Assembly: GCA_965214035.1 (NCBI GenBank)
Contig: OZ243932.1
Coordinates: 1,857,260 to 1,921,259 of the forward strand
Direction: 5' to 3'
Length of the DNA: 64,000 nt
Origin: Gammaproteobacteria bacterium
GTDB lineage: Bacteria; Pseudomonadota; Gammaproteobacteria; JAJDYQ01
In this document: positions 31,575 to 60,542 of the stretch, one piece after another
Numbering within the stretch: the stretch's first letter is position 1
How the letters are laid out: each line of letters opens with the position of its first letter
Notes under the pieces: model-generated
What the model was told of the DNA's origin: nothing
The model's database searches: none
Seen by the model: the letters and a program-made list of their open reading frames with translations, nothing else
Made by a program: the position numbers and the translations under genes

Positions 31575-31680
31575 TATGCCTGCCTTTAGTCTCTTTTACG
31601 CTAACGAACTGCATAAGTAGCGTGGGCCTTGCCACATCCATGTCGAACGCACTGTCAGCGGAACCTTTGCGCAATACGCT
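31575..31680. other. candidate attC site (R-box-like GCGCAAC ... GTTAGCG with short terminal pairing)
   Basis: Box pattern only; internal pairing weak. Confidence 0.3.
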
Positions 31681-32645
31681 CAAACCAGTGTTGCGCTCTT
31701 GAAGGCTCCCATCGGTGCGATTGAATCGAGCGCTTGCAGAATCTCAAGGCTCAATGGCATATCAAGAGAGGTAAGATTTTCCTCGATACGAGAAATTTTG
31801 CGACTCCCTGGAATCGGAATAATATCTTCGCCCTGTGCAATTAACCATGCAAGAGCCAGTTGCGCTGGTGTCATGCCCAGCTCCGAAGCAATGTTTTTGA
31901 TGCCTTCGAGGCGCTCCAGATTGCTGCTGAAATTCTCACCCTGCATTTTGGGGTTGTGATTACGAAAGTCGTTAGCGCCAAGCTCCTTAATGGTGCCGGT
32001 TAGAAAGCCGGCACCGAGTGGCGACCAACACACAAGTACAGCTCCAATACTCCTGACAGCAGGTAAAATGTCGGCCTCAGCCTCACGGCGAAACAGTGAG
32101 TACTCATATTGAACTGCTGAAACAGGATGCACCCGATTTGCCTCAAGGATTTCATTTGCTTTCACATTAGAAAGACCGATTGCCTTCACCTTGCCCTCTC
32201 GGACCGCTTTCGCCATTGCCGAGACCGTCTCTTCAAACGGTGTTTCAGGGTCCAGGTAATGGGCGTAAAGCAGATCAATTCGTTCGATCCCAAGGCGTTT
32301 GAGACTATTGTCAATCGCACGCTTCACGTAATCCTTCCTGCCGTTTATTGTCAAGGGAAACCCCTAACCGGTGTCTAGTCGGCTCCCCGATTGACCTTCC
32401 TCGAATACGATTCCAAATTTGGTTGCAACAAAAGCACTTTTCCCTGCTTGCTTAATAGCCTGCCGGATCAGTTCCTCGTTGTGACCTGCACCATAGGCAT
32501 CGGCTGAATCGATCATCATATTTTGATCGATCACATGCACCAGAGTTTCTACAGCCACATGGTTATCACTCCGACCATAGTAATCCTCCAGCACCATTGC
32601 ACCATAACCGATTTGTTTCACTGGCTGTGAGTTGACACTGAACAT
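31680..32645 (-). pseudogene. aldo/keto reductase, frameshifted (integron cassette)
   Basis: N-terminal 93 aa (32364..32645) and C-terminal 224 aa (31680..32354) of one AKR in different frames; junction near 32355-32365. Confidence 0.75.
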
Positions 32646-32692: not shown

Positions 32693-32766
32693 AACTAACG
32701 ACCAGACTCACCAGCAGCAATGGAGTTCAGCAGAGTTGCCGTCTGATGCAGTACCTTATTGTATGC
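32693..32766. other. attC-like cassette boundary repeat (family member X)
   Basis: About 75 percent identical to the repeat at 35582-35653; begins AACTAACGACCAG; lies between REase stop and AKR start. Confidence 0.5.
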
Positions 32767-35581: not shown

Positions 35582-35653
35582 AAATAACGACCAGGCCCAC
35601 TAGCATCAATGGAGCACAGCGCAACTGCCGTCCGGTACAGCGCATTGTTAGAG
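35582..35653. other. attC-like cassette boundary repeat (family member Y; R boxes AAATAAC / GTTAGAG)
   Basis: Homologous to 32693-32766; cassette-strand R'' CTCTAAC exactly complements GTTAGAG formed with first bases of upstream cassette. Confidence 0.5.
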
Positions 35654-36182: not shown

Positions 36183-36783
36183 GCCTCGATCCAGGTGTAC
36201 CTGCGGCCATCCCTCAGTTCCTTCCATCGTATGACGTACTTGCCTTCAATCACTACCTCCTGATCCTTCGCTCCAGTTGGTTTTACGATCTTTCCATGCA
36301 ACGGTTCGCCACCTCGAAAGTACTTATAGATTCCGTTAGCACTTCCGGAATGGAAAGGACGCTGTTCAACGACCGCAAGGAAGAGGCAGCTTGAGAAGCC
36401 CGCCACCTTGAGCTCTTCCAAGAACGCGATGTCTTTGCAAAAACTGAACATCTGCTCCGAGCACTGACCTGCTCTCGGATACTTGAGCTCAACCGCCAAC
36501 CGTAGCTGATTCCGAGGCGTGTCAAAGCACGTAACATCAATCTCTCTTTTCACAAACGACGGGTGTGAAAACCGAAAATAGGACACATTCCTTTCGAACT
36601 GAACCAGCTTTGCCACATTTTTTCTCGAAGAAATATTCCGAATTCGTGCTGAAGACTGAATTCGTTGTAGATTTCGATATGGCCATCGTTCAGTCGCTGG
36701 GCGAACTCCCCGATCAGTGCTTCAGGCTTTACGGAGGCCGTCATCATGGTTGGGCGAGGCAGTGGTAGCACATAACGCTTCAT
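36167..36783 (-). pseudogene. hypothetical protein, frameshifted (integron cassette)
   Basis: Two adjacent minus-strand ORFs (36550..36783 and 36167..36616) overlap in different frames. Confidence 0.45.
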
Positions 36784-36834
36784 TCAGGTGCGCCGCAGGG
36801 TTCCGCAGGCATCACCTGGAATGACTTGTTATGC
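36770..36834. other. integron attC site
   Basis: ACATAAC-GC-TTCATTCAGGTG...CACCTGGAATGAC-TT-GTTATGC; imperfect palindrome with one extrahelical base, unpaired spacers, R''/R' boxes. Confidence 0.8.
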
Positions 36835-37302: not shown

Positions 37303-37401
37303 GCATAACGCGGTGCTAAGCGGCGCCCAGCGGCGAAGCCGCGGTTTGGGCGTCCGGCGGAGGGCCGTAGGCCCGGAGCAAACTTGAGCACCTTGTTATG
37401 T
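37303..37401. other. integron attC site
   Basis: GCATAAC-GC-GGTGCT-AAGC...GCTTGAGCACC-TT-GTTATGT; GC-rich imperfect central palindrome; extrahelical base on minus-strand 5' arm. Confidence 0.85.
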
Positions 37402-37408: not shown

Positions 37409-38672
37409 TCAATCGATTGGCACCACGAGAATACCAAGCGTACCACAAAACAAACCCAAGATGTAGAGTGCCAACCACCAGCGAGAATTGAATTTCTCCC
37501 AAGAGTTCTTCCCTTTCCATGATTGAATCTCCCATCCTGCGCGACCGATCACTCCCCAAGCTACCATAAGAATAACTTTTCTTGATAGTACGAACTCTAG
37601 AATATTATTGTCTGGAGCCTTCATGAAAAATTTTGAAGTTGAGGATGATAGTTCATTTAGCTTAAGCGGCTTATCACTGTTGCTATTTAGAAGTATAGAC
37701 TTTCTTAAATCTAATCGAGTACTTATTAAACTACTGTGAGTTGCGATAATTATTTGATTTTGATGGGACTCTGATATTTTTGAAATAAGCCTTTTCATGT
37801 TGCTGTGGCTCAGATGATTTTCAGGTTCCTCTAAAAGGAGGGTATCTAACGTATTATTTTCAGCGTTACGATTCAGAGCGAATTCAGTTTTTATGAAGCA
37901 CTGCTGCCCTTGTCCTTTAGCATCTATCGGAATATCACCTTGAGTCAGAGTGATGTCAGCTTCCAGATTGTATTTTGACCCTGAGCGTATGGCCAGCTCG
38001 TAACTGCCTAATCCAGCATTAATATCTTTGAGTTTATTCTCTTTGAATTGTATTTTTTGTAACCGATATTCGTTGCTCAGGCTTACTCTATTTGCATGAT
38101 CTACAATGGAATCATAGACTGTTCTTATGTATTCGTTGTTTGCATGCTCGCTATTAATTTTTGAGCTATCTATTGTTAGACACCTAAGGAATCGGCGATA
38201 ACCGGAATATGTCTCACCATTAAAAGTAATGAATTTAACAATATAAAATTCAAATGGAAAATTTCCGTTATCTAATGCTAAGACCTGATTAATTTCATTG
38301 ATTAGCTCTTCATTAGGAATGACAAATCATATGCAGCCCGCTAGCATTGATATTTTTCGAATTGTGTTTTCCGTAAATATCGGGATTTGTTTCATCACTC
38401 AAATAAGCTTCGACATGAACTTCAGGTAAGTTCTCAAAAGTCTTTTCACCCGCTGAAAATTCAGTTATCGATCCCTTATTAAGAATGGACTCAATACCTG
38501 TAGTCTCAACTTTATGCCTGCTTCCGCTGGAAAGCAGTTCGATTGCTTGTAATATTGAGCTTTTGCCGGCTTCATTATCTCCAATGATAGTATTAATCTT
38601 CGAATCAAATTCGACTTCAAATTCTTTGAATCTTTTATAGTTAATGAGCTTTAGTTGTTTTATGTGTTGCAT
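37409..38672 (-). pseudogene. AAA/ABC-type ATPase (AAA_21 / OLD-like ATPase domain), frameshifted
   Basis: Walker A GDNEAGKSS (38672..38313), then one open frame to 37409 carrying Walker B LLLEEPENHL and H-loop QIIIATHS; single frameshift near 38313-38330. Confidence 0.7.
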
Positions 38673-38730: not shown

Positions 38731-38815
38731 GAATAACCTGCAGCTCACAGCGCATTTTGGAGATGTGAAAATACCAACACATTGGAAAAGTGCGCTGTGA
38801 GCTGTCAGGTTAATT
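38731..38815. other. integron attC site
   Basis: GAATAAC-CTGCAGCTCACAGCGCA...TGCGCTGTGAGCTGTCAGG-TTAATT; 18-bp stem with one extrahelical A. Confidence 0.8.
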
Positions 38816-38839: not shown

Positions 38840-39651
38840 CTATAGATGCAATCTTCCATCAAACACAATCACTGCTTCTCCACGAATCATTAACTGGTCC
38901 CCAGCCAACTCTAAGCTCATTGAGCCTGTGCGTTTCGACGATTGGAAGGACTCTAGTTTGGTCCTCCCTAGACGGATAGACCAGTACTTAGCAAGGAAGG
39001 TGTGAGTGCCCCCAGTTACAGGGTCTTCTTCAGTGCCACTCCAAGGCCAGAAATATCGGGAATGGAAATCGAATCCGTCTGCGCTAGAGCGCGCAGTAAC
39101 TAATACGCCATTGATCGAATCATGGGACGCTAGGAGCGCCGCGAAATCAGGGCTGAGGCTCGCGAGTAGTTTCGTGTCGTCGATTTCAAGGAGAAGGATG
39201 CGTGTCTCTTCATTGTAAACCGCATTGCTGACACTATCGATTCCCAACGCTGCGAGTAATGGCCCTGGCACGTCGCATGGGTGCGTATCGTAAACAGGAA
39301 ACTCCATTTCAATCTTATTCGCGCGTTTAGTCGCGACCAGACGGAGCCCTTGAGTATTAACGAATGTTGTTTCCTCTACTCCGAATTCAGTAAACACGAT
39401 TTTCGCGCGATGCCAAGGTGGCATGGCCGCATAGCGGAATTTCCATTTTCGGAGAGAAGTACCGAATTGAGTACTCGCCCGTGCCGTTCAGTTCTGTAAT
39501 GAAGGCGGTTTCCGAAAGCATTTTGCTGCGTACCGTGTATCTCAGAAGTCCCAGAAGTTGATTTACGATGTCTAGGAAACCACCAGGCAAAAAATGCCAC
39601 TACTACTCCAAGAGCTGCAATTATCAATCCCGCAACTTCGATACTCATCAC
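38840..39651 (-). pseudogene. PhzF-family (phenazine biosynthesis-like) protein, frameshifted (first cassette)
   Basis: PhzF motifs split over three frames (LSETAFITE...LCGHATLAS in 39590..39387; PVTGGTHTFLAKYW in 39424..38840). Confidence 0.7.
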
Positions 39652-39654: not shown

Positions 39655-39820
39655 GCCGCTAACTATTAATAGACATCCTAATCTATCACAAAATGCGGAT
39701 AAATGATACGGCTTTTCGCTATAATTATTTTAGCATTAAAATATATTGATACTATTGATTTAATGACGCTTTTTGTTTTATCAAATATTTGATGTTGCCT
39801 GAATTCTGGAAAACAAGAAA
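39655..39820. promoter_or_regulatory. candidate attI / Pint-Pc region upstream of intI remnant
   Basis: AT-rich 165 bp between first cassette and intI start; junction motif CTAACTATTAA (39659-39669). Confidence 0.35.
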
Positions 39821-40190
39821 ATGAAATCTCCCTTTTTGAACCTGACTCAAGAGCGCTTACGGCGATTGAACTACTCTCTCAGAACCGAAGAAAACTATTT
39901 AAGCTGGATTAAGCGCTATATCCTGTTTCATGGCAAACGCCATCCCACTGAGCTGGGCAAGACAAAAATGGAAGTATTTTTAACGAATCTGGCCGTTCAG
40001 AGAAAAGTGTCTGCTTCAATGCAAAGTCGGCATTGATATTTATGTATAAGCAAGTGCTGGATATGAAATCACCTTGGGTTGATGGCATGGTGCGAACCAA
40101 ACAGAAAAATAAAACCCGGTGATGTTCTCCCACCATGCTCAGATAGTGCGAGTTGTCCAATTTGATTATCTTGTAGGGCGCACCAGATAC
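39821..40190 (+). pseudogene. intI: integron integrase IntI, N-terminal fragment with frameshifts
   Basis: RLRRLNYSLRTEENYLSWIKRYILFHGKRHP...VFLTNLAVQRKVSAS aligns with IntI1 residues about 20-80; continuation (ALIFMYKQVLDMKSPW; PVMFSHHAQIVR) in other frames. Confidence 0.75.
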
Positions 40191-40561
40191 CAACTGACTA
40201 AAACCAGACCGCCAAAACCCGTATATAACACCATGAAAACCCATTCTGGAGCGTTGTAGTAAAGTAAGCTTTGCAACCAATGCTGTATAAACGAACCTGA
40301 ATATGTTTCTAACTGAGCTTCTTCCCTCAGGGCCATTTCCCAAATGGTTAAAGGACAAATGGCCCCAACCCATGATTGGATAACCACTATGGTAATAGCG
40401 ACCAGATGAGTTATTCGAAAAGCCCGATTTCTTATCCAGCACCATTTGAGGGCATATCCAAGATAAATTGCAACAAGCCCGAACACTACAAAAAAAACAA
40501 ATAGTACATGTATAATTAAAATGGCATCAGCCAGAAATATTAACAGCAATTCTTTCGGCAT
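40166..40561 (-). CDS. DUF2784-like small membrane protein
   Basis: 131 aa, 4 TM helices; 3' end overlaps intI N-fragment convergently. Confidence 0.5.
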   Translation of the reverse strand: MPKELLLIFLADAILIIHVLFVFFVVFGLVAIYLGYALKWCWIRNRAFRITHLVAITIVVIQSWVGAICPLTIWEMALREEAQLETYSGSFIQHWLQSLLYYNAPEWVFMVLYTGFGGLVLVSWYLVRPTR

Positions 40562-40753
40562 ACTTTTTTCACTTGGCGCCAGTAATAATCAGATCTAAAT
40601 CGGAGGTGATTTTCACGCAATCATACCGCAGGCATGCACACAATGGTGCGCTGAATTTGGAGTTTGCGTTGATCACATTGTGCAGAAGATACAATTGCAA
40701 TATCGTTTGGCTTAACGGTCGTTACCTACTCCTTACTTGATAGTTACCTGAGA

Positions 40754-40846
40754 ACATAACGATTGCGGCAACCGGCGCAGCCCACTGTCTGTCCCGCATA
40801 GCGTCAACCCTCGTTTCCCGGCGTCAGGCTCATTGCGTTGTTAGGG
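40754..40846. other. attC-like repeat (R boxes ACATAAC / GTTAGGG) downstream of GmrSD operon
   Basis: Same box pattern and partial homology (CTAACAA.GC, AGTGGGC) to repeats at 32693 and 35582; no strong internal palindrome. Confidence 0.4.
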
Positions 40847-41284
40847 CGCACGGCCCGAGTGCAGTATTTTCCATTGGAGATAACTTTTCAGTTGTGACGC
40901 CAACTTCTCGGGAAAACACTCCAGAATCTCAATCCACGACAACTGCTTGATGATGACATTAGTCTCAAGTTGCCAGTCCTCATCCCCGAAGACATTGGCC
41001 GAGCGACCAGCACCCAGTACGATAAAGTTGTTCACCCTCGGCATGGCCCGTCGCGCTTGAGTCTCACAATACCTTACTCGAAGATCTAGCTGGCTACGAT
41101 TTCCGGCGACACCCTGACCTGTGTTTAGCTTCGAGTTCCACTTCGCCTCGCCGAGAAGAAGCGTGGTGTCTGAACGAAGCGCGAAGTCGATCTCTGGCCC
41201 GCCACTTGACTCAGGCTTCTCAGGGTGAGGAAGTCTGCGCCAAAGCCAACAAACTGGGGCATCGGTAACTGTTGCTACGCCCAC
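40841..41284 (-). CDS. PD-(D/E)xK nuclease core (C-terminal half of split HsdR-N-like nuclease)
   Basis: 147 aa; IDFALRSD...LLGEAKW matches D-(x)n-E-x-K; in frame with upstream ORF, separated by a single TAA. Confidence 0.5.
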   Translation of the reverse strand: MGVATVTDAPVCWLWRRLPHPEKPESSGGPEIDFALRSDTTLLLGEAKWNSKLNTGQGVAGNRSQLDLRVRYCETQARRAMPRVNNFIVLGAGRSANVFGDEDWQLETNVIIKQLSWIEILECFPEKLASQLKSYLQWKILHSGRAP

Positions 41285-41806
41285 TTATTCGAGGATGCGA
41301 TTAAAGACGCTTAGCCGTGTGCTGGCGGGCGCATAGGCAAGACTCCCAAATACGCTCCATGTCACAGCGTCCTCGCTGTTCAGAGACTGTAGGTCCGTGT
41401 AGTGGCCCAATCCCGACGTTGCGGCCTCGGAGTCTTTCCCGGTACAACCCTCGAATTTGCTGCTCGCGTAGTATTTCTGGAGAAGCTCTGGCGTAGGCCA
41501 AGGAGAACATGTTCTGACCATGCTGTCGTCCGGGTGTGTAGTGACCAGCACACCGCCTCTGCTTTCAGCTAGAGAGATAGTCCTATCTTCGAGCCAAGGG
41601 TTGATGACATTGAGCCGCTCGCGCAGCACCGGCAGCATCACGACCTCGGTGAGGCTCTCCCGATGGGTGTCAGCCGGGGTCTGCTTCATACCCATCAGGT
41701 CGATGATCTCCCAACCCAAGCTCGCAAGCTGGTCGAGCAGCGGCTTCTCGACGTGGTTGCGCTCGTCAAGCTTAATCTGCTTCGGCGTTTTGCCTGGGGA
41801 GATCAT
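41285..41806 (-). CDS. HsdR-N-terminal-like domain protein (N-terminal half of split nuclease)
   Basis: 173 aa; EKPLLDQLASLGWEII...ESLTEVVMLPVLRERLNVINPWL resembles type I HsdR N-terminal helix. Confidence 0.5.
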   Translation of the reverse strand: MISPGKTPKQIKLDERNHVEKPLLDQLASLGWEIIDLMGMKQTPADTHRESLTEVVMLPVLRERLNVINPWLEDRTISLAESRGGVLVTTHPDDSMVRTCSPWPTPELLQKYYASSKFEGCTGKDSEAATSGLGHYTDLQSLNSEDAVTWSVFGSLAYAPASTRLSVFNRILE

Positions 41807-43920
41807 TCTGAAGCTTCTCCATTGGGCTTTTCGCCGTCGACTGTTCCAATAAACAGTAGTTTCTCCCGTGCCTTGTCATCGGCGAAATGAATGTTCCAAC
41901 GCTTCTCCATGAATTTCAGCAACTGAATGCCTCGCTCGCGAATTTCATCGGGGCCCCAATCCTTGTAATTAGAGACTTCGATTTCAGAGTGCGAACCATC
42001 TGCATAGCCGTTGCGGATCTTGCTGCCATCGCGATTGTACTTGGGCTTTTTCTTTTCAGCGAAGGCGTTGTTCTGTAGCGAAGAGTTGATCGCGGAAGAG
42101 AGGAGCAAAAGGTTCCCGAGGCTATTGCGGTACGCCTCCCGCTCTCGTTCGCGAATACCTTTGAAAGCTGGCTTCCAAGCCGCCGTCTCGGACTGCGGGC
42201 AAATGTGCTCGATGGATATCTTGTCCTTCGGCGACTTGAGCAAATCTGCCCAGTCAACCTTCTTGTCGCGACTCTTGGACAGCAACCCCAACTCGTACTC
42301 GTAGAGGAAATACCGCAAGCCGGGCCAGTCGTAGTAGCCCTGACCGTTCTCGAATTTCTTCTGAAGCAACAGATAGAAGTCATCATTCGCAAAATGGCCC
42401 TCATCCGTGAAAGTAAAGCTCATCCGGTCACGCAGTCGCTCCTTCAGTTCCGCCAAATCCATGTCGCCACGGTCGATCGCGCGTACCGCGTTGCTGAACT
42501 CCGAGCTGCGATAATTCGAACGGGTTTGGGTCAGCCGGAACACGACGAAGATAAACCGTTCGATCTCCTTGAATGTACCGATACGCTGAACGCGATCATT
42601 GCATTTCTTCAGAATCGCCATCAGCAACGGGCGAAAGTACGCCATGCCCAGCCGATTCAGACGTTGAATCCATTCAATTTCTTCCCGGGTCAAATCGCCG
42701 GACATTTCGGGGTAAAACGTGCAGAACCAGTGAACCGAAGACGCCTTGAGGCTCTTGACGTAGTCGCGAATCTCTTTCGGCCGCAACTCAGCGGCCATCA
42801 TCGGGTCGCTGCTTTCCACCTCGTCCAGTCCGTTCTCGTCGTCCGCTTCCAGGTCCGCGTCAGATGTCTGCTCCTCGGCTTCCTCCAGTTCAACCAGTTG
42901 AACGATCTTGCGATGAACGCGCTGCGGTGTGAACTGCTCCTCCAGCAGAAACTTGATGTAATCTCGCCCCGTCTGCCGAGAGTACTTGAAATACATCATC
43001 CAGTGGCCCCGCAGAAAGTCGTCGTCGTTCAGCGGCTTCGACTTGTTACGCCCCAACTGGAAGTAAACCTCCTTCCAAGCTTTGTTGATTAAGTCACGGA
43101 GATCGCTGCGCTCCGCGGGGTCCAGTTCCGCATCGGTATAGAGGGTCGTCAGGTAGATCAAACGATTCTTGAGCAATTCCAGATCTGAAAGCGTCTTGCC
43201 GCGGTTGTTCATCGTCTCGAAGGCGACGAAAACGTCGAACTCATCCTTGATGATGTACTCGTTAAACAGGAACCGTTTGGTCAGCATGCGGTACATACCT
43301 TGAAGCCCTGAGAGTCCTTCTTTTTCGTGCCAAGCTCGTAGTTGCTCTTTGAAGTAGTGTTTCCCATTGCTGAGATTGAGCGTATAGAACGTCTCGAACA
43401 CCGTGCCACCGCCCTCTTCGCCCAGAATTCGGTACCGCATGTACTGGTCACTGGGGTTGTCAACCGTGTAGCCGAACTTGTACGTCCGAAAGGCTTCCCC
43501 GGCCGGTTTCACCTCGAACAGAAACTTTCTTTCGACGGCCGCGATGCTGAGCGTATCGGTCAGGCAGATCGCGTCATCCACCTGACCCTTGTTTTCAGGC
43601 AAGCTGCGAAGCAACTCGATGAAGGCTTGCAGAAACAGCGTGAACGTCGTCAGCCGCTGCTGACCGTCGACGATGTGGTACACCTTGTACGAATGGTCAT
43701 CAACCAGCCAAAATTCCTTGTCATCCTGCTGAATGTCGGCGGATGGAATCTCCTTCAGAGTCAGCACACCGGTATAGTGGGAGCGACCGTCGGGCAGGTT
43801 GATGAGATCCTCCCAGAAGGCGTCCAGCTGCTCGCGTCCCCAGGCGTAACCACGCTGGTAGTCGGGAATTCGGAACAGCCTCTCCTTGAAGAGGCTATCG
43901 AGTGGTTTGGGTTCGTCCAT
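41803..43920 (-). CDS. GmrSD-like DUF262 (ParB/Srx-like NTPase) + DUF1524 (His-Me finger nuclease) protein
   Basis: 705 aa; DGQQR motif (IVDGQQRLTTF) N-terminal; HIEHICPQS...N HNH-like motif C-terminal; GC-rich by eye. Confidence 0.8.
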   Translation of the reverse strand: MDEPKPLDSLFKERLFRIPDYQRGYAWGREQLDAFWEDLINLPDGRSHYTGVLTLKEIPSADIQQDDKEFWLVDDHSYKVYHIVDGQQRLTTFTLFLQAFIELLRSLPENKGQVDDAICLTDTLSIAAVERKFLFEVKPAGEAFRTYKFGYTVDNPSDQYMRYRILGEEGGGTVFETFYTLNLSNGKHYFKEQLRAWHEKEGLSGLQGMYRMLTKRFLFNEYIIKDEFDVFVAFETMNNRGKTLSDLELLKNRLIYLTTLYTDAELDPAERSDLRDLINKAWKEVYFQLGRNKSKPLNDDDFLRGHWMMYFKYSRQTGRDYIKFLLEEQFTPQRVHRKIVQLVELEEAEEQTSDADLEADDENGLDEVESSDPMMAAELRPKEIRDYVKSLKASSVHWFCTFYPEMSGDLTREEIEWIQRLNRLGMAYFRPLLMAILKKCNDRVQRIGTFKEIERFIFVVFRLTQTRSNYRSSEFSNAVRAIDRGDMDLAELKERLRDRMSFTFTDEGHFANDDFYLLLQKKFENGQGYYDWPGLRYFLYEYELGLLSKSRDKKVDWADLLKSPKDKISIEHICPQSETAAWKPAFKGIREREREAYRNSLGNLLLLSSAINSSLQNNAFAEKKKPKYNRDGSKIRNGYADGSHSEIEVSNYKDWGPDEIRERGIQLLKFMEKRWNIHFADDKAREKLLFIGTVDGEKPNGEASE

Positions 43921-43986
43921 CGCGATACTCGTTGATTAATTATGGGAATTATATGGGAATTATATACTTGACTCCCTAGTGTCTCG

Positions 43987-44649
43987 TCATATTTCTTGTG
44001 TTGGATATAGTCGTTTTAGTTTGATGCGCGCGTCTTCAGTTGTGAACTGCCAATCCACCTGAGTCTGCAGGCGGTCCCGTGAGGCTTGCCAGGCAGCGAC
44101 CTCACGTGCGAGTATGTCCATACGGTCGATACGCCGATTCAGGCATTGGCGGTTCATGACATTGAGTTCGATTTCAGCCACATTCAGCCAACTACCGTGC
44201 TTTGGGGTGTACACGAACTCGAATCGGTCCCATAGTGCTTTGGCTTGTGCCGGTGGGTAGGCTTCATAGAATGCACCGGGGCGGTGGGTATTGAGATTGT
44301 CCATGACCAAGGTGATGCGGGTGGCATCCCGATAGCGTGCGGCGATGTCGGAGAGGAACTGCGCCCAATCGGTTCGGGTTCTACGTTCGGTTACTTGGGT
44401 CATCCGCTTGCCAGCCAAAGGTTCGGTGGCCATGAAGACATTACAGGTTCCACAACGCTGGTATTCGTAGTCGTATCGGGCTGGCTGTCCTGGACTCATG
44501 GCAACCGGCGTACGAGTCTCCCGAATCAGTTGGCGCGGTGTCTCGTCCATGCATACTACCGGGAAAGCGGCATCGTAGGGACGCCGGTAAACATCCAGCA
44601 CCTTTTCCATCGCGGCGACGAACTCGGCGTTGCCTTGTGGCGGAATCAC
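43987..44649 (-). CDS. IS630-family transposase, DDE catalytic part (orfB)
   Basis: 220 aa; DDE motifs (VVCMDE, VMDNLNTH, SWLNVAE). Confidence 0.85.
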   Translation of the reverse strand: MIPPQGNAEFVAAMEKVLDVYRRPYDAAFPVVCMDETPRQLIRETRTPVAMSPGQPARYDYEYQRCGTCNVFMATEPLAGKRMTQVTERRTRTDWAQFLSDIAARYRDATRITLVMDNLNTHRPGAFYEAYPPAQAKALWDRFEFVYTPKHGSWLNVAEIELNVMNRQCLNRRIDRMDILAREVAAWQASRDRLQTQVDWQFTTEDARIKLKRLYPTQEI

Positions 44650-45122
44650 CCATCCGACCCGCGGCCATGGTTTGAGTTCGTTTTTTTTAGAACCCGTCGC
44701 ACGGTTTCATGGGACACCGAATCAATGTAACCCAGTTCCACAACCCGGTCGGCCAAGAGCCGCAACGACCATTGCGCGTAACCCGCCGGAGCTTCATCAC
44801 AGGCCAAAGCCACCAGACGCGCCTCGAATTCGCCGTCGGCCTTACGAATATAGGTGAGCCTGCGCCCTTGGCGGCCTCCTAGCGCCGCATCCAGACCTTC
44901 CTCCACAAACCGCTTCTTCACTCGATCCACCTTGCGCATGCTGATGCGTAGTATGTCCGAGATGGCTTCCCCAGTGGAATGCCGATCATTGAAAACACCT
45001 TCATCGCAGTTGAGCAGGATCAACGCATTAATCACCTTTTGGGACCGATGCGAACCCTTGTTCGTGATACCTGTCAATTCATCTCGCTCCGCTTCGTCCA
45101 ACGTCACCCTATAGCGTTTCAT
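44646..45122 (-). CDS. IS630-family transposase, N-terminal HTH part (orfA), joined to orfB by frameshift
   Basis: 158 aa; HTH domains; A8 slippery run (coding strand) at 44684-44691 at the orfA/orfB overlap. Confidence 0.8.
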   Translation of the reverse strand: MKRYRVTLDEAERDELTGITNKGSHRSQKVINALILLNCDEGVFNDRHSTGEAISDILRISMRKVDRVKKRFVEEGLDAALGGRQGRRLTYIRKADGEFEARLVALACDEAPAGYAQWSLRLLADRVVELGYIDSVSHETVRRVLKKTNSNHGRGSDG

Positions 45123-45206
45123 ACATTCAACCTCGTCTTAAACAGAAAACAAGGAATCTATCATATTATATGCGACATATCATGTATGACGAGACACTAG
45201 TCTCCA

Positions 45207-46068
45207 TTAATTAAAGCACGAAGATTGGTTGCCAAGTGGTTTAAATCGAAGATGTAAATGCTTGCGGCCAGCATGATGCCAGACACCGTACAGCCCTCGG
45301 CGCAACAGTGCCCAGACGCTTTCGATGCTGTTCGTATGGATATCGTTCGCACCGACATACTCCCCGGCACTGTGCTTGACGTGTCCATGCTCGTATCCGG
45401 CCAGTCCTTGATAGGCGGTCGCTTCCTCCGTGTAGACCGATGATCCCTTCTTGACGTGTTGCTTGATGGTGCCCTGTAGCGTCTCCTTCTTGGTATCCCC
45501 TACTGGCATCGCCACGGTGCGTCCAGTCGCCCGTTCTCGCAACCCTACGACCGCTTGCTTACCGACCGCTCCCCGACCTTCATGTAACTTTTTCCATTCG
45601 TGTTTGTTCTTTTCCTTACCGCCGATATAAACCTCATCGACTTCGACTTCACCGGACAGCATCCCGCCATCACTGCCATCACCACAGGCCTCACGGATAC
45701 GCACCTGCATAAACCAAGCGGTCTTTTGTGTCACTCCAATCTGCTTTGATAATTGCAGACTGGATATCCCCTTGCGTTCCGTGACCGTCATGTAGATCGC
45801 GTAAATCCACTTGTGTAGGGGAACGGATGACCGCTCAAAGATCGTTCCGGTACGCACCGTAAATTCCTCGTTGCAGTCTTTGCATCGGTAGTACCCCAAC
45901 CGCTTTCCCTACCTGGCGTAGATGTTGCCAAAGCAACCGCAATGAGCACAAACGGGCGTACCTTTCCAGCGCTGTTGCTCAATGTAGCATCTGGCTGATT
46001 CAGCATTGGGAAACTGCTCAAACAGTTCGACCAGGGAAATTGTGATATTATCTTTCATTGTGCTTTCC
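45207..46068 (-). pseudogene. IS1595-family transposase with in-frame TAG
   Basis: N-terminal zinc ribbon MKDNITIS...CAHCGCFGNIYAR then in-frame TAG (about 45900) then GKRLGYYRCKDCNEEF...DDE region to 45207. Confidence 0.7.
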
Positions 46069-46129
46069 TATTGACATGACCCATTTTATAACGCAACAGC
46101 TAGGGAGTCAAGTATATAATTCCCAAAAG

Positions 46130-46520
46130 TTATTGGTTATGCGCAAAGCAGAGTTTGAAGAGGATTTGGCCGCCGGGTTAGTGGGGTTTTTATGCCCGAT
46201 GCTTTGATGCGCAAATATCCAGATGCACAACGTGAGTGGATTTGGCAATATGTTTTTTCCTCGCCAAAATTATCACAAGACCCAAGAACAGGAATAGTCA
46301 GGCGCCATCATATTTATGAGCAATCTATTGGACGAGCGATTAAACAGACAGCACGTGATGGACAAATAGCAAAAAGAGTGAGTGCTCACACCTTCAGGCA
46401 TTCGTTTGCCACGCATCTGCTTGAGGCAGGCTATGACATTCGTACCATTCAAGATTTATTGGGGCATAAACATGTAGAAACCACAATGATTTATACCCAT
46501 GTGCTCAAATCGGGGGGACA
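46130..46520 (+). pseudogene. intI: integron integrase IntI, C-terminal fragment (5'-truncated at IS1595 end)
   Basis: [25 protein letters not shown]...[16 protein letters not shown]...[45 protein letters not shown] matches IntI C-terminus including IntI-specific insert and catalytic Y; frameshift near 46180; no stop. Confidence 0.8.
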
Positions 46521-46596
46521 GGGGGGCAGTCGCCTTTGGATGTATTGTAATACTATCCTGACAAGCGAGGCTTTATTAAAATCCTGTCACTATCTT

Positions 46597-47307
46597 TCAG
46601 CGCACCACAACCACCGAGTCAGAAAGCAACGGCTGTATGATTTCAAGTACATCTTCTTTGGTGACCTCAGTGCGGAAAGTTTTGATGATCCTCTGATTCC
46701 GGTCAATGACAACGGTGTAGGGCAGGGTTGTCAGTTGGTTGCCATACTCCTGCATGATGGTCAGCCCTTCCAGTTCAGCAAGCAGGATCGGGTATTCCAC
46801 GCCGATTTCGTCAACAAAATCCTGTACGGGTTCGGCCTGATCAATGGCTACTCCGATAATCTCAAACGGCTCGCCTTCGAGTTGTTCGCGCAGCTCAATA
46901 AAATCCGGCATTTCCTTGCGGCACGGAGGGCACCAGATTGCCCAGAAGTTGAGCAGGATAATGTTGCCGTCCCATTCGCTCAGGCTGCGTCTGTCGCCTT
47001 CAAGACTGTTTAAGCTGAAATCGGGTCTGATTTCAGGTATGCCAACCTGCCGCTCTGTCTGTATCGGGGTGCTTTTATCGCCTTGCAGCCATTGTGCAGC
47101 CAGCACTCCCGCGACCATGGATATCAGGGCAACAGTACCATAGAGCAGTGCCGTCTTGTATGACGCTTTCATGAAGATAGTGACCCGCCACAACCGCGTC
47201 AGAGCTTCATCCAAAAGCATCGGTGTGTACTGTTTTATAGTTGAGGTGGCACTGTGACAGCATGTATCATTATGTACCTGTGCCCAAAATCCCCAAGACA
47301 GCCTCAA
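46597..47307 (-). CDS. TlpA/ResA-like thiol:disulfide oxidoreductase, membrane anchored
   Basis: 236 aa; N-terminal [13 protein letters not shown] thioredoxin motif. Confidence 0.75.
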
Positions 47308-47492
47308 GAACTTTTCTGACAGGAACCGATTTGCGAACAGTTCTTGTGGGAGGGCAAATAGTGCTTAATACGATCCCGGCTTTCACCTGTCAGCTTATTT
47401 ATGCAAGCAACGATACACTACTCTGAAAATAATTTGATTTTCAGATAGGTTCAATCAGATGTCAGGGCGATTACCGCACCTGACGGCGGCAA

Positions 47493-48281
47493 TCAACCGC
47501 CGGCATCCTCGCCAATCGGCTGCACTGTATTGTTGGATCTCGGTGTTGATACCTTTCGAAGATCGCGTATATGGTAGTTCGTTCCCTTTCTCTCCAGTTC
47601 GAACAAACCTACTGCACGGACCAGATCACTCAGCTTCGCGAAACCGTAGTTTCTCGGGTCGAAGTCAGCAGCAGTCCTGTTGACGTAACTGCCAACACGA
47701 GCCAAGGCAGTCCAGCCACTATCGTCGCACTCTGCGTCTATCGCAGCACGCAGTAGATTCACTAACCTGGCGTCGCCTCGCAGCTCATTCGATGTCCGTG
47801 AATGCACCCCCTGTTCTTCCCCTTGAGCTGCAAAATTAGCGAACACTTCAGTATATGTGAATCTGTCGCACGCAGCCACGAAGGGGCGCGGCGTCTTACG
47901 CTCGCCGAATCCGTAAACCTTAAGTCCTGACTCTCGAATCCGCGCAGCGAGGCGAGTGAAGTCACTATCGCTCGAGACCAGGCAGAATCCACTGAACACT
48001 CCTGCATACAGAAGATCCATTGCATCGATGATCAGTGCACTATCGGTGGCGTTCTTTCCGGTGGTATAGGCGAATTGTTGTATAGGCTGGATTGAATGCT
48101 CTAGCAGAACTGACTTCCACTGAGTGAGACCAGGAGTGGTCCAATCCCCATAAATTCGCTTTACACTAGCAATACCAAGCTTCGCAATTTCTGTGAGGAG
48201 TCCCTCAACAATCGACGCACTCACATTGTCCGCGTCTATGAGCACTGCAAGGGGATGATTGTCGCTATTGTCAGGCTGCAT
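47493..48281 (-). CDS. NYN (LabA-like) domain protein with C-terminal OST-HTH-like region
   Basis: 262 aa; AVLIDADN and SSDSDF NYN motifs. Confidence 0.7.
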   Translation of the reverse strand: MQPDNSDNHPLAVLIDADNVSASIVEGLLTEIAKLGIASVKRIYGDWTTPGLTQWKSVLLEHSIQPIQQFAYTTGKNATDSALIIDAMDLLYAGVFSGFCLVSSDSDFTRLAARIRESGLKVYGFGERKTPRPFVAACDRFTYTEVFANFAAQGEEQGVHSRTSNELRGDARLVNLLRAAIDAECDDSGWTALARVGSYVNRTAADFDPRNYGFAKLSDLVRAVGLFELERKGTNYHIRDLRKVSTPRSNNTVQPIGEDAGG

Positions 48282-48400
48282 ATCTATACGAGATATCTAG
48301 CGATCAAACTCAGCCGGATGCGGAAAATTGGGAGTGATAGAGAAAAAATTTTTCCCCGAATAATCAGTTACGTGATTCACCATATATCTAACACCTCTGT

Positions 48401-48721
48401 TCAGCGGCGCAGCTTTACTGCGTCGGGCTGCATGCGCTTGTTAGTGGTCACATCTTGTAAGCTCCCAGACACATACTTGTGCAAAATGCTGGACACCAAT
48501 GTTTGATACGGGATACCCTCTATTAATGCACGCTTTTGAATGGCGTCCAGATCACGGCTCGAAATGCGGATATTTATCCGTTTATCTTTTTTAAAGGTAT
48601 GTGTTGCCATTTCCTGAATCTTCTTCCTGCGTGCGGATGTTAGTTTCGACTTAAACTCACCGGCCTCATAAGCCTTTAAAAGTTTCTTTTCATCTTTATC
48701 CAGTTTCACTTTACTCATCAC
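48401..48721 (-). CDS. brnA: BrnA-type antitoxin
   Basis: 106 aa; overlaps brnT by 11 bp; RHH-like C-terminal region. Confidence 0.6.
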   Translation of the reverse strand: MMSKVKLDKDEKKLLKAYEAGEFKSKLTSARRKKIQEMATHTFKKDKRINIRISSRDLDAIQKRALIEGIPYQTLVSSILHKYVSGSLQDVTTNKRMQPDAVKLRR

Positions 48722-48992
48722 TCTCCCCCAGATACTGTCTGGTTGCTTTTCGGCTTGGGATAATGGTTTTCAAAAAAATACCTTCCCTGGATTCCACGTA
48801 TGGTACCAAATAGACATAGCCTTCAATGGCTACGACATACATCCTTTGGTGCCCATAAACCTCCTGATTAGGAGGTTCAACATCATCCAGCAAGCTATCC
48901 GACTGAAGATGGAAAATAACTTCCTCAAAAGAGACTCCTCTTTCTTCAATGAGCTGCTTGTTTTTCTCCAGATCCCAATCGTATTGCTTCAT
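48711..48992 (-). CDS. brnT: BrnT-type toxin (DUF497)
   Basis: 93 aa; MKQYDWDLEKNKQLIEERGVSFEEV N-terminus typical of BrnT. Confidence 0.7.
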   Translation of the reverse strand: MKQYDWDLEKNKQLIEERGVSFEEVIFHLQSDSLLDDVEPPNQEVYGHQRMYVVAIEGYVYLVPYVESREGIFLKTIIPSRKATRQYLGESDE

Positions 48993-49392
48993 GGAATGTG
49001 AGTATAGCAGAATGTGAGCCTTTTGGCATCATTTTCAAGTGACCGCTAAGGCCGCCAATAGAGGTCGAAAAATCAGAGCGAAGCGGCGGTATTACGATCC
49101 CTCTAGGGGCCTTACTATACGCTTTAATCAACATGCATTGCTGTTTCTGCATATTCCTTTTTTGGCATCAGGCGTGCCATTTGATTCCCAAGGTAGTTGT
49201 GACATATAGTGCCTAAATCAGGTGCGCCGCGGGCGTCACCCGGATTTACTTGTCAGGTATGTGTTTGTGGTCGATCTGAACTTGCTTTATTTTATAAATA
49301 AACTCTGGCTTGTTAACATAAGCCATAGCTCTATCCCATAAAGGATTTGTACGGTCATAAAGATTCTTCGCAAGTGCCTTTATTTCGGTAGC

Positions 49393-50693
49393 GTTCATAA
49401 TTTTGTGTCATTGACTTAAACTGATATGAACTGATTTGATTAAGGAGATGATAGATGAAAACCCACATTGGCTTTGATATGGAAGCGGCTATCAAGGATT
49501 TGCGCGAAGGCAAAGACCTCGGTGGCAAGGATGGCATTTTTACCCCGCTCATCAAGCAATTAACCGAGGCCGCCATGCAGGCCGAGCTGGAAGAACACCT
49601 GGCAGCCGAGGCGGCTCCGAACCGTAAAAACGGCAGCAGCACAAAAACCATGAAAACCCCGACCGGGGAGTTTGAGCTGAAAACCCCGCGTGACCGAGCC
49701 AGCACCTTTGAACCCCGGATGGTCAAAAAGCACCAAACCCACCTGACTGATGAACTCCAGCGCAAGGTGATGGGCCTGTTTGCACTGGGCAACAGCTATC
49801 AGGATATCCGCACTCACATTGCCGATATGTACGACATCTCGCTGTCCAACGGGACGATCAGCACGGTCACCGACAAGCTGTTACCCGAGTTACAGGCTTG
49901 GCGTGAGCGCGACCTCGAAGCCGTCTATCCGATTGTCTGGCTGGATGCTATCCATTACAAAATCAAGGAAAATGGCCGTTATCTGAACAAGGCAGTTTAC
50001 ACCATTTTGGGACTGAACATGGAGGGCAAGAAAGAACTCCTGGGTCTGTATCTGTCCGACTCCGAAGGTGCCCACCATTGGCTGAGCGTGCTGACCGACC
50101 TGCATAACCGAGGGGTCAAGGACATCCTGATCGTCTGTGTGGATGGACTCAAGGGCTTCCCTGAGGCCATTCACAGCATTTATCCTGACACCGAGATACA
50201 ACATTGCGTCATCCATCAAATCCGCCATTCCATGAAGTATGTGGCCTCGAAAAATCAATCCGCGTTTATGGCAGACCTCAAATGTGTTTACAAGGCCGCA
50301 ACCCTCAATGCCGCCGAGATCGCCCTGGATGAGTTGGAGGACAAATGGGGAGACAAGTATCCCCTGGTCATCCAGTCCTGGCACCGCAAGTGGCCCACGC
50401 TATCGGCCTACTTCAAGTACCCCGATTATGTGCGCACCGCGATTTACACCACCAATGCGGTAGAAGCCGTCCATCGACAGTTCCGCAAACTGACCAAAAC
50501 CAAAGGGGGCTTTGCCAATGAAAGCAGCTTGCTCAAGTTGCTCTATGCCGGCATACTCAAGGCCTCGGAGCGCTGGACACATCCGGTACAAAATTGGAAC
50601 TTGACGCTCTCGCAATTAACCCTTCACTTTGAGGGGCGACTCGACGATTACATTGCTTTGTAAATGTAAATGGCTGACACAGAATTTTGAACA
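49393..50693. mobile_element. IS256-family insertion sequence
   Basis: Terminal IRs GTTCATAATTTTGTGTCA (49393-49410) and rc-match TGACACAGAATTTTGAAC (50676-50693); 1.3 kb; single transposase. Confidence 0.8.
49455..50663 (+). CDS. IS256-family transposase
   Basis: 402 aa; MULE/IS256 DDE conservation (VWLDAIHYK, CVDGLKGF, IQHCVIHQIRHS). Confidence 0.9.
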   Translation: MKTHIGFDMEAAIKDLREGKDLGGKDGIFTPLIKQLTEAAMQAELEEHLAAEAAPNRKNGSSTKTMKTPTGEFELKTPRDRASTFEPRMVKKHQTHLTDELQRKVMGLFALGNSYQDIRTHIADMYDISLSNGTISTVTDKLLPELQAWRERDLEAVYPIVWLDAIHYKIKENGRYLNKAVYTILGLNMEGKKELLGLYLSDSEGAHHWLSVLTDLHNRGVKDILIVCVDGLKGFPEAIHSIYPDTEIQHCVIHQIRHSMKYVASKNQSAFMADLKCVYKAATLNAAEIALDELEDKWGDKYPLVIQSWHRKWPTLSAYFKYPDYVRTAIYTTNAVEAVHRQFRKLTKTKGGFANESSLLKLLYAGILKASERWTHPVQNWNLTLSQLTLHFEGRLDDYIAL

Positions 50694-51563
50694 CCCTCGG
50701 AATTTCATGTCGTGCGACATTCTGCGGCATTCCAATAAACTGTATATCAAACTTCAATGAAGGCTCAACCATTGACCGAGCACTGTGAAGCCGGAAAGAT
50801 AATTGCCAGCCACCCTCAAAAGTAACCAGTAGCGTGCTATTTGAGCTTGGCTTTCGCCGTATTTGTTCAATCCGGCTCGGCATCTTCCATCTCTTGCCCC
50901 ATTTCAGGGTTCCATTGATGTTCACGCTTGTAATGCTGGCACGGTCCGGAAAGCAGACAACCTTGTAATAGTCTTTTGTCCCAACCAAGTACTGGAAGAA
51001 TGGACTGATGAATTGCTTTGCGTAGTCCTCGCATAATCGCCGTAGCTCATCCTCAAAGGCGGCCAGTATGGGCAGGCAGCAGTACCTACCTTGTCTGGTA
51101 TATCGCGAAAATACTGCCCTTGCCTGCCCCTTAAATCCTCGAATACAGGCCTTACTTTCTGCCAGTAGACACTGCTGCATGGATGGTTTCCCCAGTCCTT
51201 GCCAAAGTCGATGCTATCCGATAGCTGTGAGTGCTTTACCCCTTGATGGTTGTGTTTGGCTGAAATGCCTATAGAACCATCTGGCTCCAGGTAAATAACA
51301 ATATCCCGAACATCTCCGGATTTCCCTTGAAAGTCATCCTGCAAGGCAATACGCGATATATGACTAAACTGATCATCGTGGCACAACAAAAAGATTGAGA
51401 CTTCATCTGCTGCCTTGTCAAAGCTTTTCCTTTCTGGCAAATCTTCGTAGTGAATCTTTGTTTGGAAATACGCTTTGTTTTGAACAATGTCGGCGTTCGT
51501 ATGCCTGCTTATCTCTCTGGCAAGCGCGTGCTCAAACGCCTTGCCGTTCCGAACCTGTTTCAA
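50694..51563 (-). pseudogene. putative restriction endonuclease (PD-(D/E)xK), frameshifted and 3'-truncated by IS256
   Basis: Two overlapping frames (51563..50922 and 51180..50557), second reads through into IS256 end; DVRDIVIYLEPDG...SAKHNH PD-ExK-like motif. Confidence 0.5.
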
Positions 51564-51949
51564 GACACCTTCACATAATCTTTTGACATAATCAGCACTT
51601 CCTTGCTGGACTTGTCGTTACTCATTCCGTAAGTCCATTCAGGCTCAATGATTTCATAGCCTTCATATAACTGCCTGACTCTCTGACAGTCATTATATGA
51701 CAACAACCAACCATCGCGCTCTTTAAGCAAGTCGGCAAGCCCTGTATGATTAAAGTCTGTATGTTGATCTCCACGGTTCCCGTATAATGAACCGCCGTTC
51801 ATGTACGGGGGGTCAAGATACATAAAATCGTCTCGATGCTTGCGTATAGAATCGTGGAAGCCTGCCATTTCTACCCGAAAGTTACCGACTTTGAATTTAC
51901 CTAGCTTCTCAATACAACTATCCGTAAATCGCGGATGACCAAGTGACAT
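51560..51949 (-). pseudogene. Dam-like N6-adenine DNA methyltransferase, C-terminal fragment only
   Basis: 129 aa; motif IV DPPY at residue 46; motif I region absent; in-frame stop 19 codons upstream. Confidence 0.65.
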
Positions 51950-55915: not shown

Positions 55916-56310
55916 GGTTCCATCCTATTCTGGTATGCGTACTTAAAATACTCGCTCATTGCAGGCGACATGTCCAGCCGTAAAAGCCGCCGATGTGCGC
56001 AGATTATTTACAGACGGCACCAAAATCACAGCAACCGGAGTTTCCACACAGCCCGATAGCCGATAATATTGGTACCATACTTGCTTTTTATTTCGATACC
56101 ACAGAGTTAAATTATGGAAACAGTATATATGAATAACGGCAGCATACTCAGCCGCCCACTGATCATGTCTGCTGAACATGATCAGACAGAAAACGATGTT
56201 TGTTGTGGCGATGCCCTCTGTATTGCCTTATGGTCATGTCAGCACAATGCTCAACAGGATCCGGGGGGCTCTCAACGCTTCAATATGCAAACAGAACCCC
56301 TTCTTCGGTA

Positions 56311-59492: not shown

Positions 59493-59557
59493 TGCGATTA
59501 AGATAGCATACTGCTACTTGTTTACAACCTTTTATTATTGACTTTAGGGAGTCTGAA

Positions 59558-59980: not shown

Positions 59981-60002
59981 GTCTCATCCAGCCAAAAATA
60001 TG

Positions 60003-60031
60003 AAGGGGCTTCTTTAACGGAGCCCCTTTTC
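60003..60031 (+). terminator. intrinsic terminator after pilin 1
   Basis: GGGGCT-loop-AGCCCC followed by TTTT. Confidence 0.5.
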
Positions 60032-60400: not shown

Positions 60401-60542
60401 GGTTCAAACAAAAAAAGAGATTTCCCCCACCAAACATAGCCAGACTATTAATGATAGCATCACACAGTCATATATTCGCCGGCCGGCTATGACACCGAAT
60501 TATCGCCCATGATATGAAACCCAGAGCAGTTCGCATAAAAAG

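Follow-up and report, generated by a model that had tools for sequence, protein, structure and literature searches.

The integron integrase gene intI of a host described as an uncultured marine gammaproteobacterium lies in two pieces, 5.96 kb of DNA unrelated to the gene standing where codons 119-178 should be, which raises the question of whether one gene was broken in place or two integron remnants came to lie side by side. Within the window (the whole 64,000-nucleotide stretch that we analyzed), the platform runs from a cassette array on the minus strand through attI, at about 39.66 kb, to intI on the plus strand and a convergent TlpA gene. We lean toward reading the locus as a decayed sedentary chromosomal integron of an uncultured gammaproteobacterium near GTDB order JAJDYQ01, whose intI was broken in place by an IS-associated rearrangement.

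Both pieces carry features of IntI. The N-terminal fragment occupies 39821-40164 of the plus strand and corresponds to residues 1-118; a Pfam search assigns it the SAM-like DNA-binding domain PF13495 (E = 2.5 × 10−17), it covers positions 2-112 of TIGR02249 after frame correction, its nucleotide sequence aligns to the gene for the intact integrase P0003, and it is 70% identical to P0001, the closest intact IntI, ending at L-S-N-L (residues 115-118 of P0001). The C-terminal fragment, at 46127-46550 of the plus strand, corresponds to residues 179-319, is 89% identical to P0001 and matches TIGR02249 positions 180-315 at E = 2.8 × 10−59, versus 7 × 10−25 for XerD. It contains the additional domain that distinguishes IntI from XerC and XerD (KYP..W.WQYVF...S.DPRTG..RRHH), retains H-R-H-Y of the active-site residues along with the RHSFAT...Y end, and closes with a stop codon at 46548-46550. 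Both fragments thus belong to IntI and to no other tyrosine recombinase. They do not overlap on TIGR02249, positions 113-179 of which are absent from both; with the missing ~60 residues (119-178) the gene has lost its box I arginine and its lysine hairpin, and no single uninterrupted frame encodes all of the catalytic residues (R, K, H, R, H/W, Y). The fragments score 85 and 201 bits, each below the 265-bit TIGR02249 cut-off. Three frame changes mark the N fragment (a 10-nt deletion near 40020 and changes near 40107 and 40152), and two 1-nt deletions in homopolymer runs mark the C fragment (at ~46183-46191 and ~46521-46527). Given the loss of 60 central codons together with these five indels, this copy of intI is dead and without function.

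A first-pass annotation, made from the sequence alone, had recognized an N-terminal IntI fragment on the plus strand from 39821 and a C-terminal fragment with the IntI-specific region, and our alignment to IntI profiles places both in the same family, as it proposed. Its boundaries needed revision, however: the N fragment had been drawn to 40190 (about residue 125) with two frameshifts, the C fragment had been given as 46130-46520 (about residues 215-320), and about 90 residues had been counted as missing. We considered extending the N fragment to about 40196, on the likeness of 'LVGRTRYQL' to 'LKGRYWL', and rejected this because the bases encode the conserved C-terminus of a DUF2784 protein.

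The DNA upstream of intI is that of an integron platform, with attI at the 5′ end of the integrase gene and oppositely oriented cassettes bounded by attC hairpins. The attI region (39658-39820, minus strand) has its GTTAGC core at 39663-39658; the boundary with the cassettes falls between G39663 and T39662. Homology to the related loci L083 and L085 (~90% nucleotide identity) begins near this core, and the cassettes to its left differ wholly between genomes; this is the behavior expected of attI. Three attC hairpins on the minus strand (36770-36834, 37303-37401 and 38731-38815) have AAC...GTT ends and fold with z-scores of about −4, −5 and −7 to −11, and they separate cassettes whose Pfam matches identify a GNAT gene, a GajA-like ATPase pseudogene and a PhzF pseudogene. 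A strict attC scan returned no sites, and relaxed scans returned these three clear sites and one weak one, none of them within the split. The shared attC box pattern GTGCGCCCTAAC has three matches versus 3.4 expected by chance. A 68-nt direct repeat at 32693 and 35582 was rejected as an attC family because it does not fold, and the sole find of Rfam and tRNA scans was a tRNA-Met at 20.4 kb.

The DNA between the fragments is a patchwork and not a set of cassettes: it comprises a complete DUF2784 gene, two ORFs, a GmrSD gene and a defective IS1595 element with a later IS630. All of the intervening genes are oriented as the cassettes are. The block from ~40.8 to 46 kb has a GC content of 51-58%, and the intI fragments and DUF2784 have ~39-43%. 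The DUF2784 membrane protein gene (40166-40561, minus strand; PF10861, E = 4 × 10−30), already recognized in the first reading, is a common chromosomal gene with 80 metagenome homologues of 58-79% identity that share its C-terminus. At the left junction (40165-40174), where antisense intI meets the 3′ end of DUF2784, IntI homology stops at 40164 and the V-R-P codons run from 40175, and this junction shows neither a repeat nor an IS end nor an attC. Beyond DUF2784, a non-coding spacer (40562-40840), over which GC climbs from ~40% to ~55%, leads to two adjoining minus-strand ORFs in different frames (40841-41806; 147 aa and 173 aa). Their matches to HSDR_N (E = 1.6 × 10−4) and DUF7268 (E = 3 × 10−4) both lie below threshold, they have no match in PADLOC, and merging them as a single protein still left it under every Pfam threshold; the 173-aa ORF opens with an HsdR-like N-terminus, and the two are probably gene remnants.

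The adjacent gene (41803-43920, minus strand) encodes a GmrSD-type type IV restriction protein of 705 aa. Like GmrSD and BrxU-type enzymes, it has both defining domains in one protein, DUF262 (GmrSD_N; PF03235, E = 4 × 10−30) and DUF1524 (GmrSD_C; PF07510, E = 2 × 10−20), and PADLOC returns HEC-06, Orf5 and mREase_IV. It differs from them in being a passenger of the rearrangement, with putative activity and no demonstrated role in integron function. The same gene, at 91% nucleotide identity, is found in L086 (over window positions 43934-41719) and L087 (over window positions 43934-41816), contigs of 66% and 63% GC that share the GmrSD gene alone with the window, and it was acquired horizontally. 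In both contigs it adjoins oppositely oriented genes, one of them an IS-type transposase, and the shared boundary reads CAACGA... and not G|TTRRRY.

The insert had been described as holding a GC-rich three-gene nuclease operon and two cassette-like modules, DUF2784 and GmrSD, with a pair of attC-like boxes after each. The GC content and the GmrSD gene stand, although GmrSD is the only member identified. The boxes do not: TAGGGCGCAC at 40174-40183 consists of the V-R-P codons of the conserved DUF2784 C-terminus, and neither the spacers, the 40562-40840 stretch included (z = +0.9 for 40708-40855 and +0.85 for 40562-40700), nor positions 40050-40195 (z = −0.07) surpass shuffled sequence in folding. 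Further, a hairpin scan of 40.0-43.95 kb found nothing. Neither module ends in an attC hairpin or has a G|TTRRRY boundary; the intervening genes are therefore not demonstrated to be cassettes.

The right end of the insert is an IS1595-family element (43954-46125, minus strand) with 26/26 inverted repeats, ~951 bp long without its passenger. Its right inverted repeat ends at 46125 and abuts the C fragment, as had been noted, IntI sequence being recognizable from 46127. Domain matches (PF12762, PF12760 and NF033547) identify a DDE_Tnp_IS1595 transposase with an N-terminal zinc ribbon, whose gene (45207-46058) is interrupted by an in-frame TAG at 45909-45911. IS1595-family elements duplicate 8 bp of target upon insertion; the flanks here, gaattata and aaagttat, confirm that there is no target duplication. 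The inverted repeat occurs in only two copies in the window, and just outside the left one (43943-43953) the sequence repeats 11 bp of its outer end in direct orientation. Nested in the left inverted repeat is an IS630-family element (43979-45197, minus strand; NF033545 and PF13358, for a DDE_3 transposase with HTH domains) with inverted repeats of 79% identity over 34 nt, a TA duplication (43977-78 and 45198-99) and a transposase that spans two frames, with an A8 run near 44681. Farther right, an IS256-family element (49382-50703, plus strand), also lacking a target duplication, marks a further rearrangement breakpoint: homology to relatives ends at its end.

An IS without a target duplication is a classical outcome of IS-mediated adjacent deletion or of recombination between IS copies. 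IS1595 lacks one, and an IS-associated rearrangement is therefore involved. Like products of those processes, IS1595 and IS256 here combine good inverted repeats with the lack of a duplication; they differ in that the mechanism is inferred from a single IS1595 copy, any reciprocal product lying outside the comparison. We propose that DNA with IS1595 at its end would have arrived within intI, and that the adjoining intI codons would then have been lost through IS-associated deletion or recombination, which would account for the missing duplication. The left junction may have formed by illegitimate recombination.

Relatives without the IS speak for a break in place. In L083 and L085 (~90% nucleotide identity), window position 39946 is joined directly to 46551/46557, so that attI and intI codons 1-42 are followed by DNA past the intI stop. 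Comparison with such relatives had been suggested as a way to find an intact intI; theirs is deleted after codon 42, but the direct join shows that attI, intI and TlpA formed one ancestral locus that decayed independently, the same integrase having been lost independently in close relatives. The TlpA-family thiol:disulfide reductase gene, which lies with the last ~27 nt of dsbD at 46600-47215 (minus strand), is 100% identical to P0259 and syntenic in L083, L085 and L169, and is intI's ancestral neighbor. Upstream of TlpA, dsbD is replaced by a minus-strand stretch (47216-49381) with a 240-bp segment, an NYN-LOTUS gene, a BrnT/BrnA-like toxin-antitoxin pair and a small ORF; a weak attC-like hairpin (48386-48446) accompanies the toxin-antitoxin pair.

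Among the homologous loci compared, no relative has either inner junction of the split, and none of the 85 loci compared has a homologue of the intervening genes, NYN, the BrnT/BrnA pair, PhzF or GNAT. When genomes were scanned with P0001, none of the loci returned was syntenic at the nucleotide level (best match a Candidatus Spongiihabitans chromosome, 75%), and translated comparison found only scattered shared genes, with NadE near intI in L082 and SDR and methyltransferase genes near intI in L001.

Other observations tell against a single-gene history. The left junction, lacking an IS end, repeat or attC, has no visible mechanism, and the fragments have decayed unequally. Of the sites that do not vary among P0001-P0004, the nearest four intact IntIs, the N fragment has lost 16 of 52 and the C fragment 4 of 99; by segment, the window is altered at 1 of 25 in codons 1-42, 3 of 18 in codons 43-66, 13 of 34 in codons 67-115 and 4 of 99 in codons 179-319. 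When each is compared with every intact IntI, identity averages 14 points lower for the N fragment than for the C fragment, where the usual N-minus-C difference is −2 ± 5; codons 1-42 are no nearer P0001 than P0003 or P0004, and the C fragment is clearly nearest P0001. Such unequal decay is not what a single gene would be expected to show if it decayed evenly once inactivated.

These data leave some room for the possibility that the split gene is a chimera. The N fragment, attI and array would come from an old, dead unit and the C fragment and TlpA from a recently functional, P0001-like one, both belonging to an amplified multi-copy platform (dsbD 3′ end-TlpA-intI-attI-array) whose units exchange sequence. 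The units would have been joined by an IS1595-associated deletion plus a second deletion, or by recombination between them, with the insert as former inter-unit DNA; in a milder variant, the 3′ half would have been gene-converted by a paralogue. An intact IntI of 319 aa, P0001 (457 bits, full-length, against TIGR02249), appears to be encoded elsewhere in this genome: window ORFs are identical to proteins on a 2,513,604-bp contig, and the records place P0001 on a contig of that length too, along with four TlpA paralogues that differ at 5-8 of 191 residues. Exact-protein look-ups (window GmrSD and DUF2784; P0001, P0142 and P0143) matched no contig. The TlpA junction without dsbD recurs in L083 and L169, and the TlpA segment has therefore been copied or moved; the missing IS1595 duplication and the shared cassette orientation of the intervening genes also fit, and intragenomic duplication is a published origin of intI pseudogenes (PMC2426708). 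On this account, units may coexist as intact (P0001), deleted (the L083/L085 type) and insertion-disrupted (the window). By contrast, a single unit of L083 and L085 links the N-fragment allele directly to TlpA, the fragments do not overlap, as a single gene requires, and the intervening genes have no attC sites between them. The earlier proposal of IS-mediated insertion plus adjacent deletion, or else two juxtaposed remnants, holds as to IS association; as to its two alternatives, the single locus in L083/L085 supports the break in place, and unequal decay, the fourfold TlpA and the intact IntI support two remnants. Because the genome apparently retains the intact P0001, the claim that the integrase is dead is limited to this copy.

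An assembly artefact, with the contig joining two places through multicopy IS1595/IS630 or the frameshifts being homopolymer errors, is improbable. Three of the five indels do lie in or beside homopolymer runs (C3-4, G4T5, G6), IS630 and IS256 have several genomic copies and IS1595 has no target duplication, but the left junction lies outside repeated sequence, the 10-nt deletion is not of homopolymer type, long housekeeping genes of the window are intact, the IS1595::IS630 composite is merely 2.2 kb, and the independent contig L169 confirms the TlpA-to-NYN flank. Insertion of the DUF2784 and GmrSD modules by the integrase into a secondary site within intI is largely refuted and very improbable, since, for all their cassette-like orientation and the insertion outside att sites documented for integrases (bioRxiv 10.1101/2022.09.11.507474), the modules lack attC hairpins, the putative box is coding sequence, GmrSD elsewhere has non-cassette surroundings, and the loss of 60 target codons is not an effect of site-specific insertion.

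Inactivated intI genes have ample precedent. In published surveys, about one third of intI genes are pseudogenes and about a quarter of integrons contain IS (PMC2426708, PMC4889954). The locus resembles the intI pseudogenes of sedentary chromosomal integrons (Nemergut et al., 2008, PMC2426708; including, as far as cited there, Xanthomonas integrons) in its frameshifts and major indel, its retained attI and cassettes, a functional paralogue apparently present in the genome and differing lesions in relatives; it differs in that a ~6 kb mosaic with a restriction gene and nested IS splits the gene, and in its unequally decayed halves. It also resembles IS-rearranged integrons and CALIN elements (Cury et al., 2016, PMC4889954), with IS in or beside the integron and IS breakpoints dividing its parts, except that the breakpoint here is within intI and three clear attC sites are left. 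In IntegronFinder's terms, the array would probably be classed as a CALIN lying near an intI pseudogene.

The split intI is ordinary genome decay, and intI at 39821-46550 should be annotated as a pseudogene. Because intI pseudogenes and IS-rearranged integrons are already well documented, the locus is of limited interest, and its significance beyond annotation is small; it is a neat case of IS elements and defence genes building up in, and erasing, a chromosomal integron. The neighboring array is best treated as a small, probably passive three-attC cluster, although attI and the three attC sites could still serve the intact paralogue P0001 in trans. The hint that an integron platform and a host TlpA gene are present in several copies in a small (2.5 Mb) genome is the one point of wider interest.

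The ORF opening at 39821 (+ strand) matches both PF13495, the SAM-like N-terminal domain of phage-type integrases, and TIGR02249; once frame-corrected, this N fragment (39821-40164) covers TIGR02249 positions 2-112. The C fragment (46127-46550, + strand) fits that model's C-terminal two fifths much better than it fits XerC/XerD (frame-corrected: positions 180-315, E 2.8e-59, versus 7e-25 for XerD). Both fragments are thus IntI, as the first-pass annotation had proposed, and do not derive from different recombinase families. The N fragment aligns with residues 1-118 of P0001, a 319-aa protein that is the nearest intact relative found, and nucleotide alignment with the gene for P0003, another close intact IntI, ends IntI homology at L-S-N-L (40153-40164). 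The C fragment begins one base past an IS1595 inverted repeat, with 46127 corresponding to residue 179, and closes with a stop codon at 46548-46550. Residues are thus missing between the fragments, as had been claimed, but about 60 (119-178) rather than about 90. Those lost take in the box I arginine and the lysine hairpin; still in place on the C fragment are the IntI-specific domain and the H-R-H-Y residues of the active site.

The N fragment carries a 10-nt deletion at ~40020 and further frame changes at ~40107 and ~40152, and the C fragment lacks one nucleotide in each of two runs, G4T5 (46183-46191) and G6 (46521-46527). Sequencing error is conceivable for the three of these five indels that lie in or beside homopolymer runs, but is excluded for both the 10-nt deletion and the 6-kb interruption. 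With codons 119-178 gone and five indels, this copy of intI cannot work, in agreement with the earlier view of a dead integrase.

Two relatives are ~90% identical to the window at this locus in nucleotide sequence: L083, an ENA metagenome scaffold, and L085, from GCA_022825085.1 (assembly JAJDYQ01, an accession prefix that is also the name of the GTDB order in PMC11427306). Both align with the window from 39641/39659 to 39946 and, after a gap of 13-15 bases, from 46551/46557 onward. The left limit of this homology is at about a GTTAGC core (39663-39658, - strand), beyond which each of the three genomes has wholly different small genes, and such switching of gene content is the behavior expected of an attI site. 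To the left of attI, three hairpins with the AAC...GTT ends of attC sites (36770-36834, 37303-37401 and 38731-38815) fold far better than shuffled sequence (z about -4 to -11) and set three genes apart: GNAT, a GajA-like ATPase in fragments, and PhzF, which is truncated and frameshifted. The locus is therefore a real integron. A hairpin scan and folding found no attC hairpin at 31-36.6 kb. Within that stretch, a cupin gene and a BsoBI-type restriction-modification pair lie between the two copies of a 68-nt direct repeat (32693-32760 and 35582-35649, 74% identical), which has a further match in the relative L168 (2489-2555) and was ruled out as attC by its lack of an attC-type fold.

Further pseudogenes cluster at 31680-32645, 37409-38672, 38840-39590 and 50557-51949, comprising a split aldo-keto reductase, the GajA-like and PhzF remnants, a HaeIII-like restriction enzyme in two ORFs and a Dam methylase fragment. 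The region from 31 to 52 kb is a graveyard of defense-gene and cassette remnants with housekeeping genes on either side. Farther right, PilS/PilR-like genes (56200-59306) lie immediately upstream of type IV pilin paralogues, at least four in number and arranged in tandem (59546-64000; PF00114 plus the N-terminal methylation motif), whose 5' parts are 70-90% identical.

The DNA between the fragments is a mosaic, made up of four or more unrelated pieces. It includes a complete DUF2784 gene at 40166-40561 (- strand). We recovered 80 metagenome homologues at 58-79% identity, and the C-termini read in 13 of them all finish W(F/Y/C/D)(L/I)(V/I)(R/P/H)P plus 2-14 residues; what had been taken for an attC-like box, TAGGGCGCAC (40174-40183), is the V-R-P codons of this conserved C-terminus. 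Two ORFs at 40841-41806 gave sub-threshold hits only and no PADLOC hit. The 705-aa GmrSD protein has both GmrSD domains, and its gene alone is 91% identical in nucleotide sequence to two contigs of 63-66% GC, where it stands out as an island of 55% GC; the match spans window positions 43934-41719 in one contig (L086, 9987-12202) and 43934-41816 in the other (L087, 5699-7817), and its upstream boundary, CAACGA at 14 bp before the ATG, is shared by the two contexts. Since GmrSD is shared alone, these matches indicate a gene transferred recently and horizontally between unrelated genomes, not part of a conserved operon, unlike the three-gene nuclease operon described at first. Nor does any piece of the insert carry a mark of the cassette-like modules once assigned to it: the spacer at 40562-40840 and the stretch at 40050-40195 fold no better than shuffles (z of +0.85, +0.9 and -0.07), and a box pattern search gave matches at chance level.

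The IS1595 element (43954-46125) has perfect 26-bp inverted repeats, which have no further occurrence within the window, and a transposase with an in-frame TAG. An IS630 element (43979-45197) with a TA duplication is nested inside its left inverted repeat, and an 11-bp copy of that repeat's outer end lies immediately outside it (43943-43953). As first reported, IS1595 lacks a target duplication (gaattata and aaagttat do not match); its two flanks were therefore not contiguous originally. The same is true of an IS256-family element (49382-50703; 29-nt inverted repeats, flanks agtgccttt and ttcatgtcg without target duplication), at whose left end homology to L168 stops. At least six IS256 transposase variants are recorded on the 2.51-Mb contig of the proteins identical to window ORFs. 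The right intI junction may have been made by IS-mediated adjacent deletion or by recombination between IS copies; the left, which shows neither a repeat nor an IS end, would be a product of illegitimate recombination.

On balance we lean slightly toward one gene broken in place, because L083 and L085 tie attI and the 5' part of intI to the intI 3' flank and TlpA as one locus, and because the window fragments do not overlap. These same points count against a two-unit chimera or a converted 3' half, which we regard as possible but doubtful, although several observations argue for two origins. Among sites on which the four nearest intact IntIs (P0001-P0004) all agree, those altered in the window number 1 of 25 in codons 1-42, 3 of 18 in codons 43-66 and 13 of 34 in codons 67-115, versus 4 of 99 in codons 179-319. 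Against ~110 intact IntIs (300-345 aa), identity of the N fragment averages 14 points below that of the C fragment, versus a usual N-minus-C difference of -2 ± 5. Window ORFs are identical to proteins, including P0259 and P0260, that are recorded on a 2,513,604-bp contig; also recorded on contigs of this length are P0001, which is intact (457 bits, full-length, against TIGR02249), and three further TlpA paralogues, each with 5-8 of 191 residues different from the window's. We infer that these paralogues and P0001 share a genome with the window and that several TlpA(-intI) units are present in this genome. Finally, dsbD precedes TlpA in L084 and L085 and is lost at the window's TlpA, a junction also found in L083 and L169.

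The TlpA thiol:disulfide reductase (window 46600-47220) seems to exist in four slightly different copies (P0142, P0143, P0257 and P0259) in a 2.5-Mb genome. Such a copy number is uncommon among housekeeping genes and points to repetition of a TlpA(-intI) segment. At least two copies are called with a 16-codon N-terminal extension reading through the last dsbD codons, like the window's dsbD-less copy. A 240-bp non-coding segment (47216-47452) with an internal inverted repeat, CTGACAGG...CCTGTCAG, links the dsbD remnant to upstream genes that vary (NYN in the window and L169, MarR in L083). Unlike the window's lesion, that of intI in L083 and L085 removes codon 43 through the stop codon, identically in both, with 13-15 bp of filler (L083, 2393-2409; L085, 10621-10635); since the L085 unit has dsbD upstream of TlpA and the L083 unit does not, one identical lesion occurs in two different unit contexts. 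Elsewhere in the clade, the identical protein P0003 is encoded by two loci (L081 and L082) that lie on separate contigs of a single assembly and both have a short array, which is another duplicated integron platform.

About one third of genomic intI genes are pseudogenes, and a fifth of integron-bearing lineages have more than one intI (PMC2426708); about a quarter of complete integrons contain IS elements, which are implicated in splitting integrons (PMC4889954). The locus is a fresh instance of this known pattern of intI pseudogenes (PMC2426708) and IS-split integrons (PMC4889954). Many pseudo-integrons share their genome with a functional paralogue (PMC2426708), and P0001 may act on the attI and attC sites of the window.
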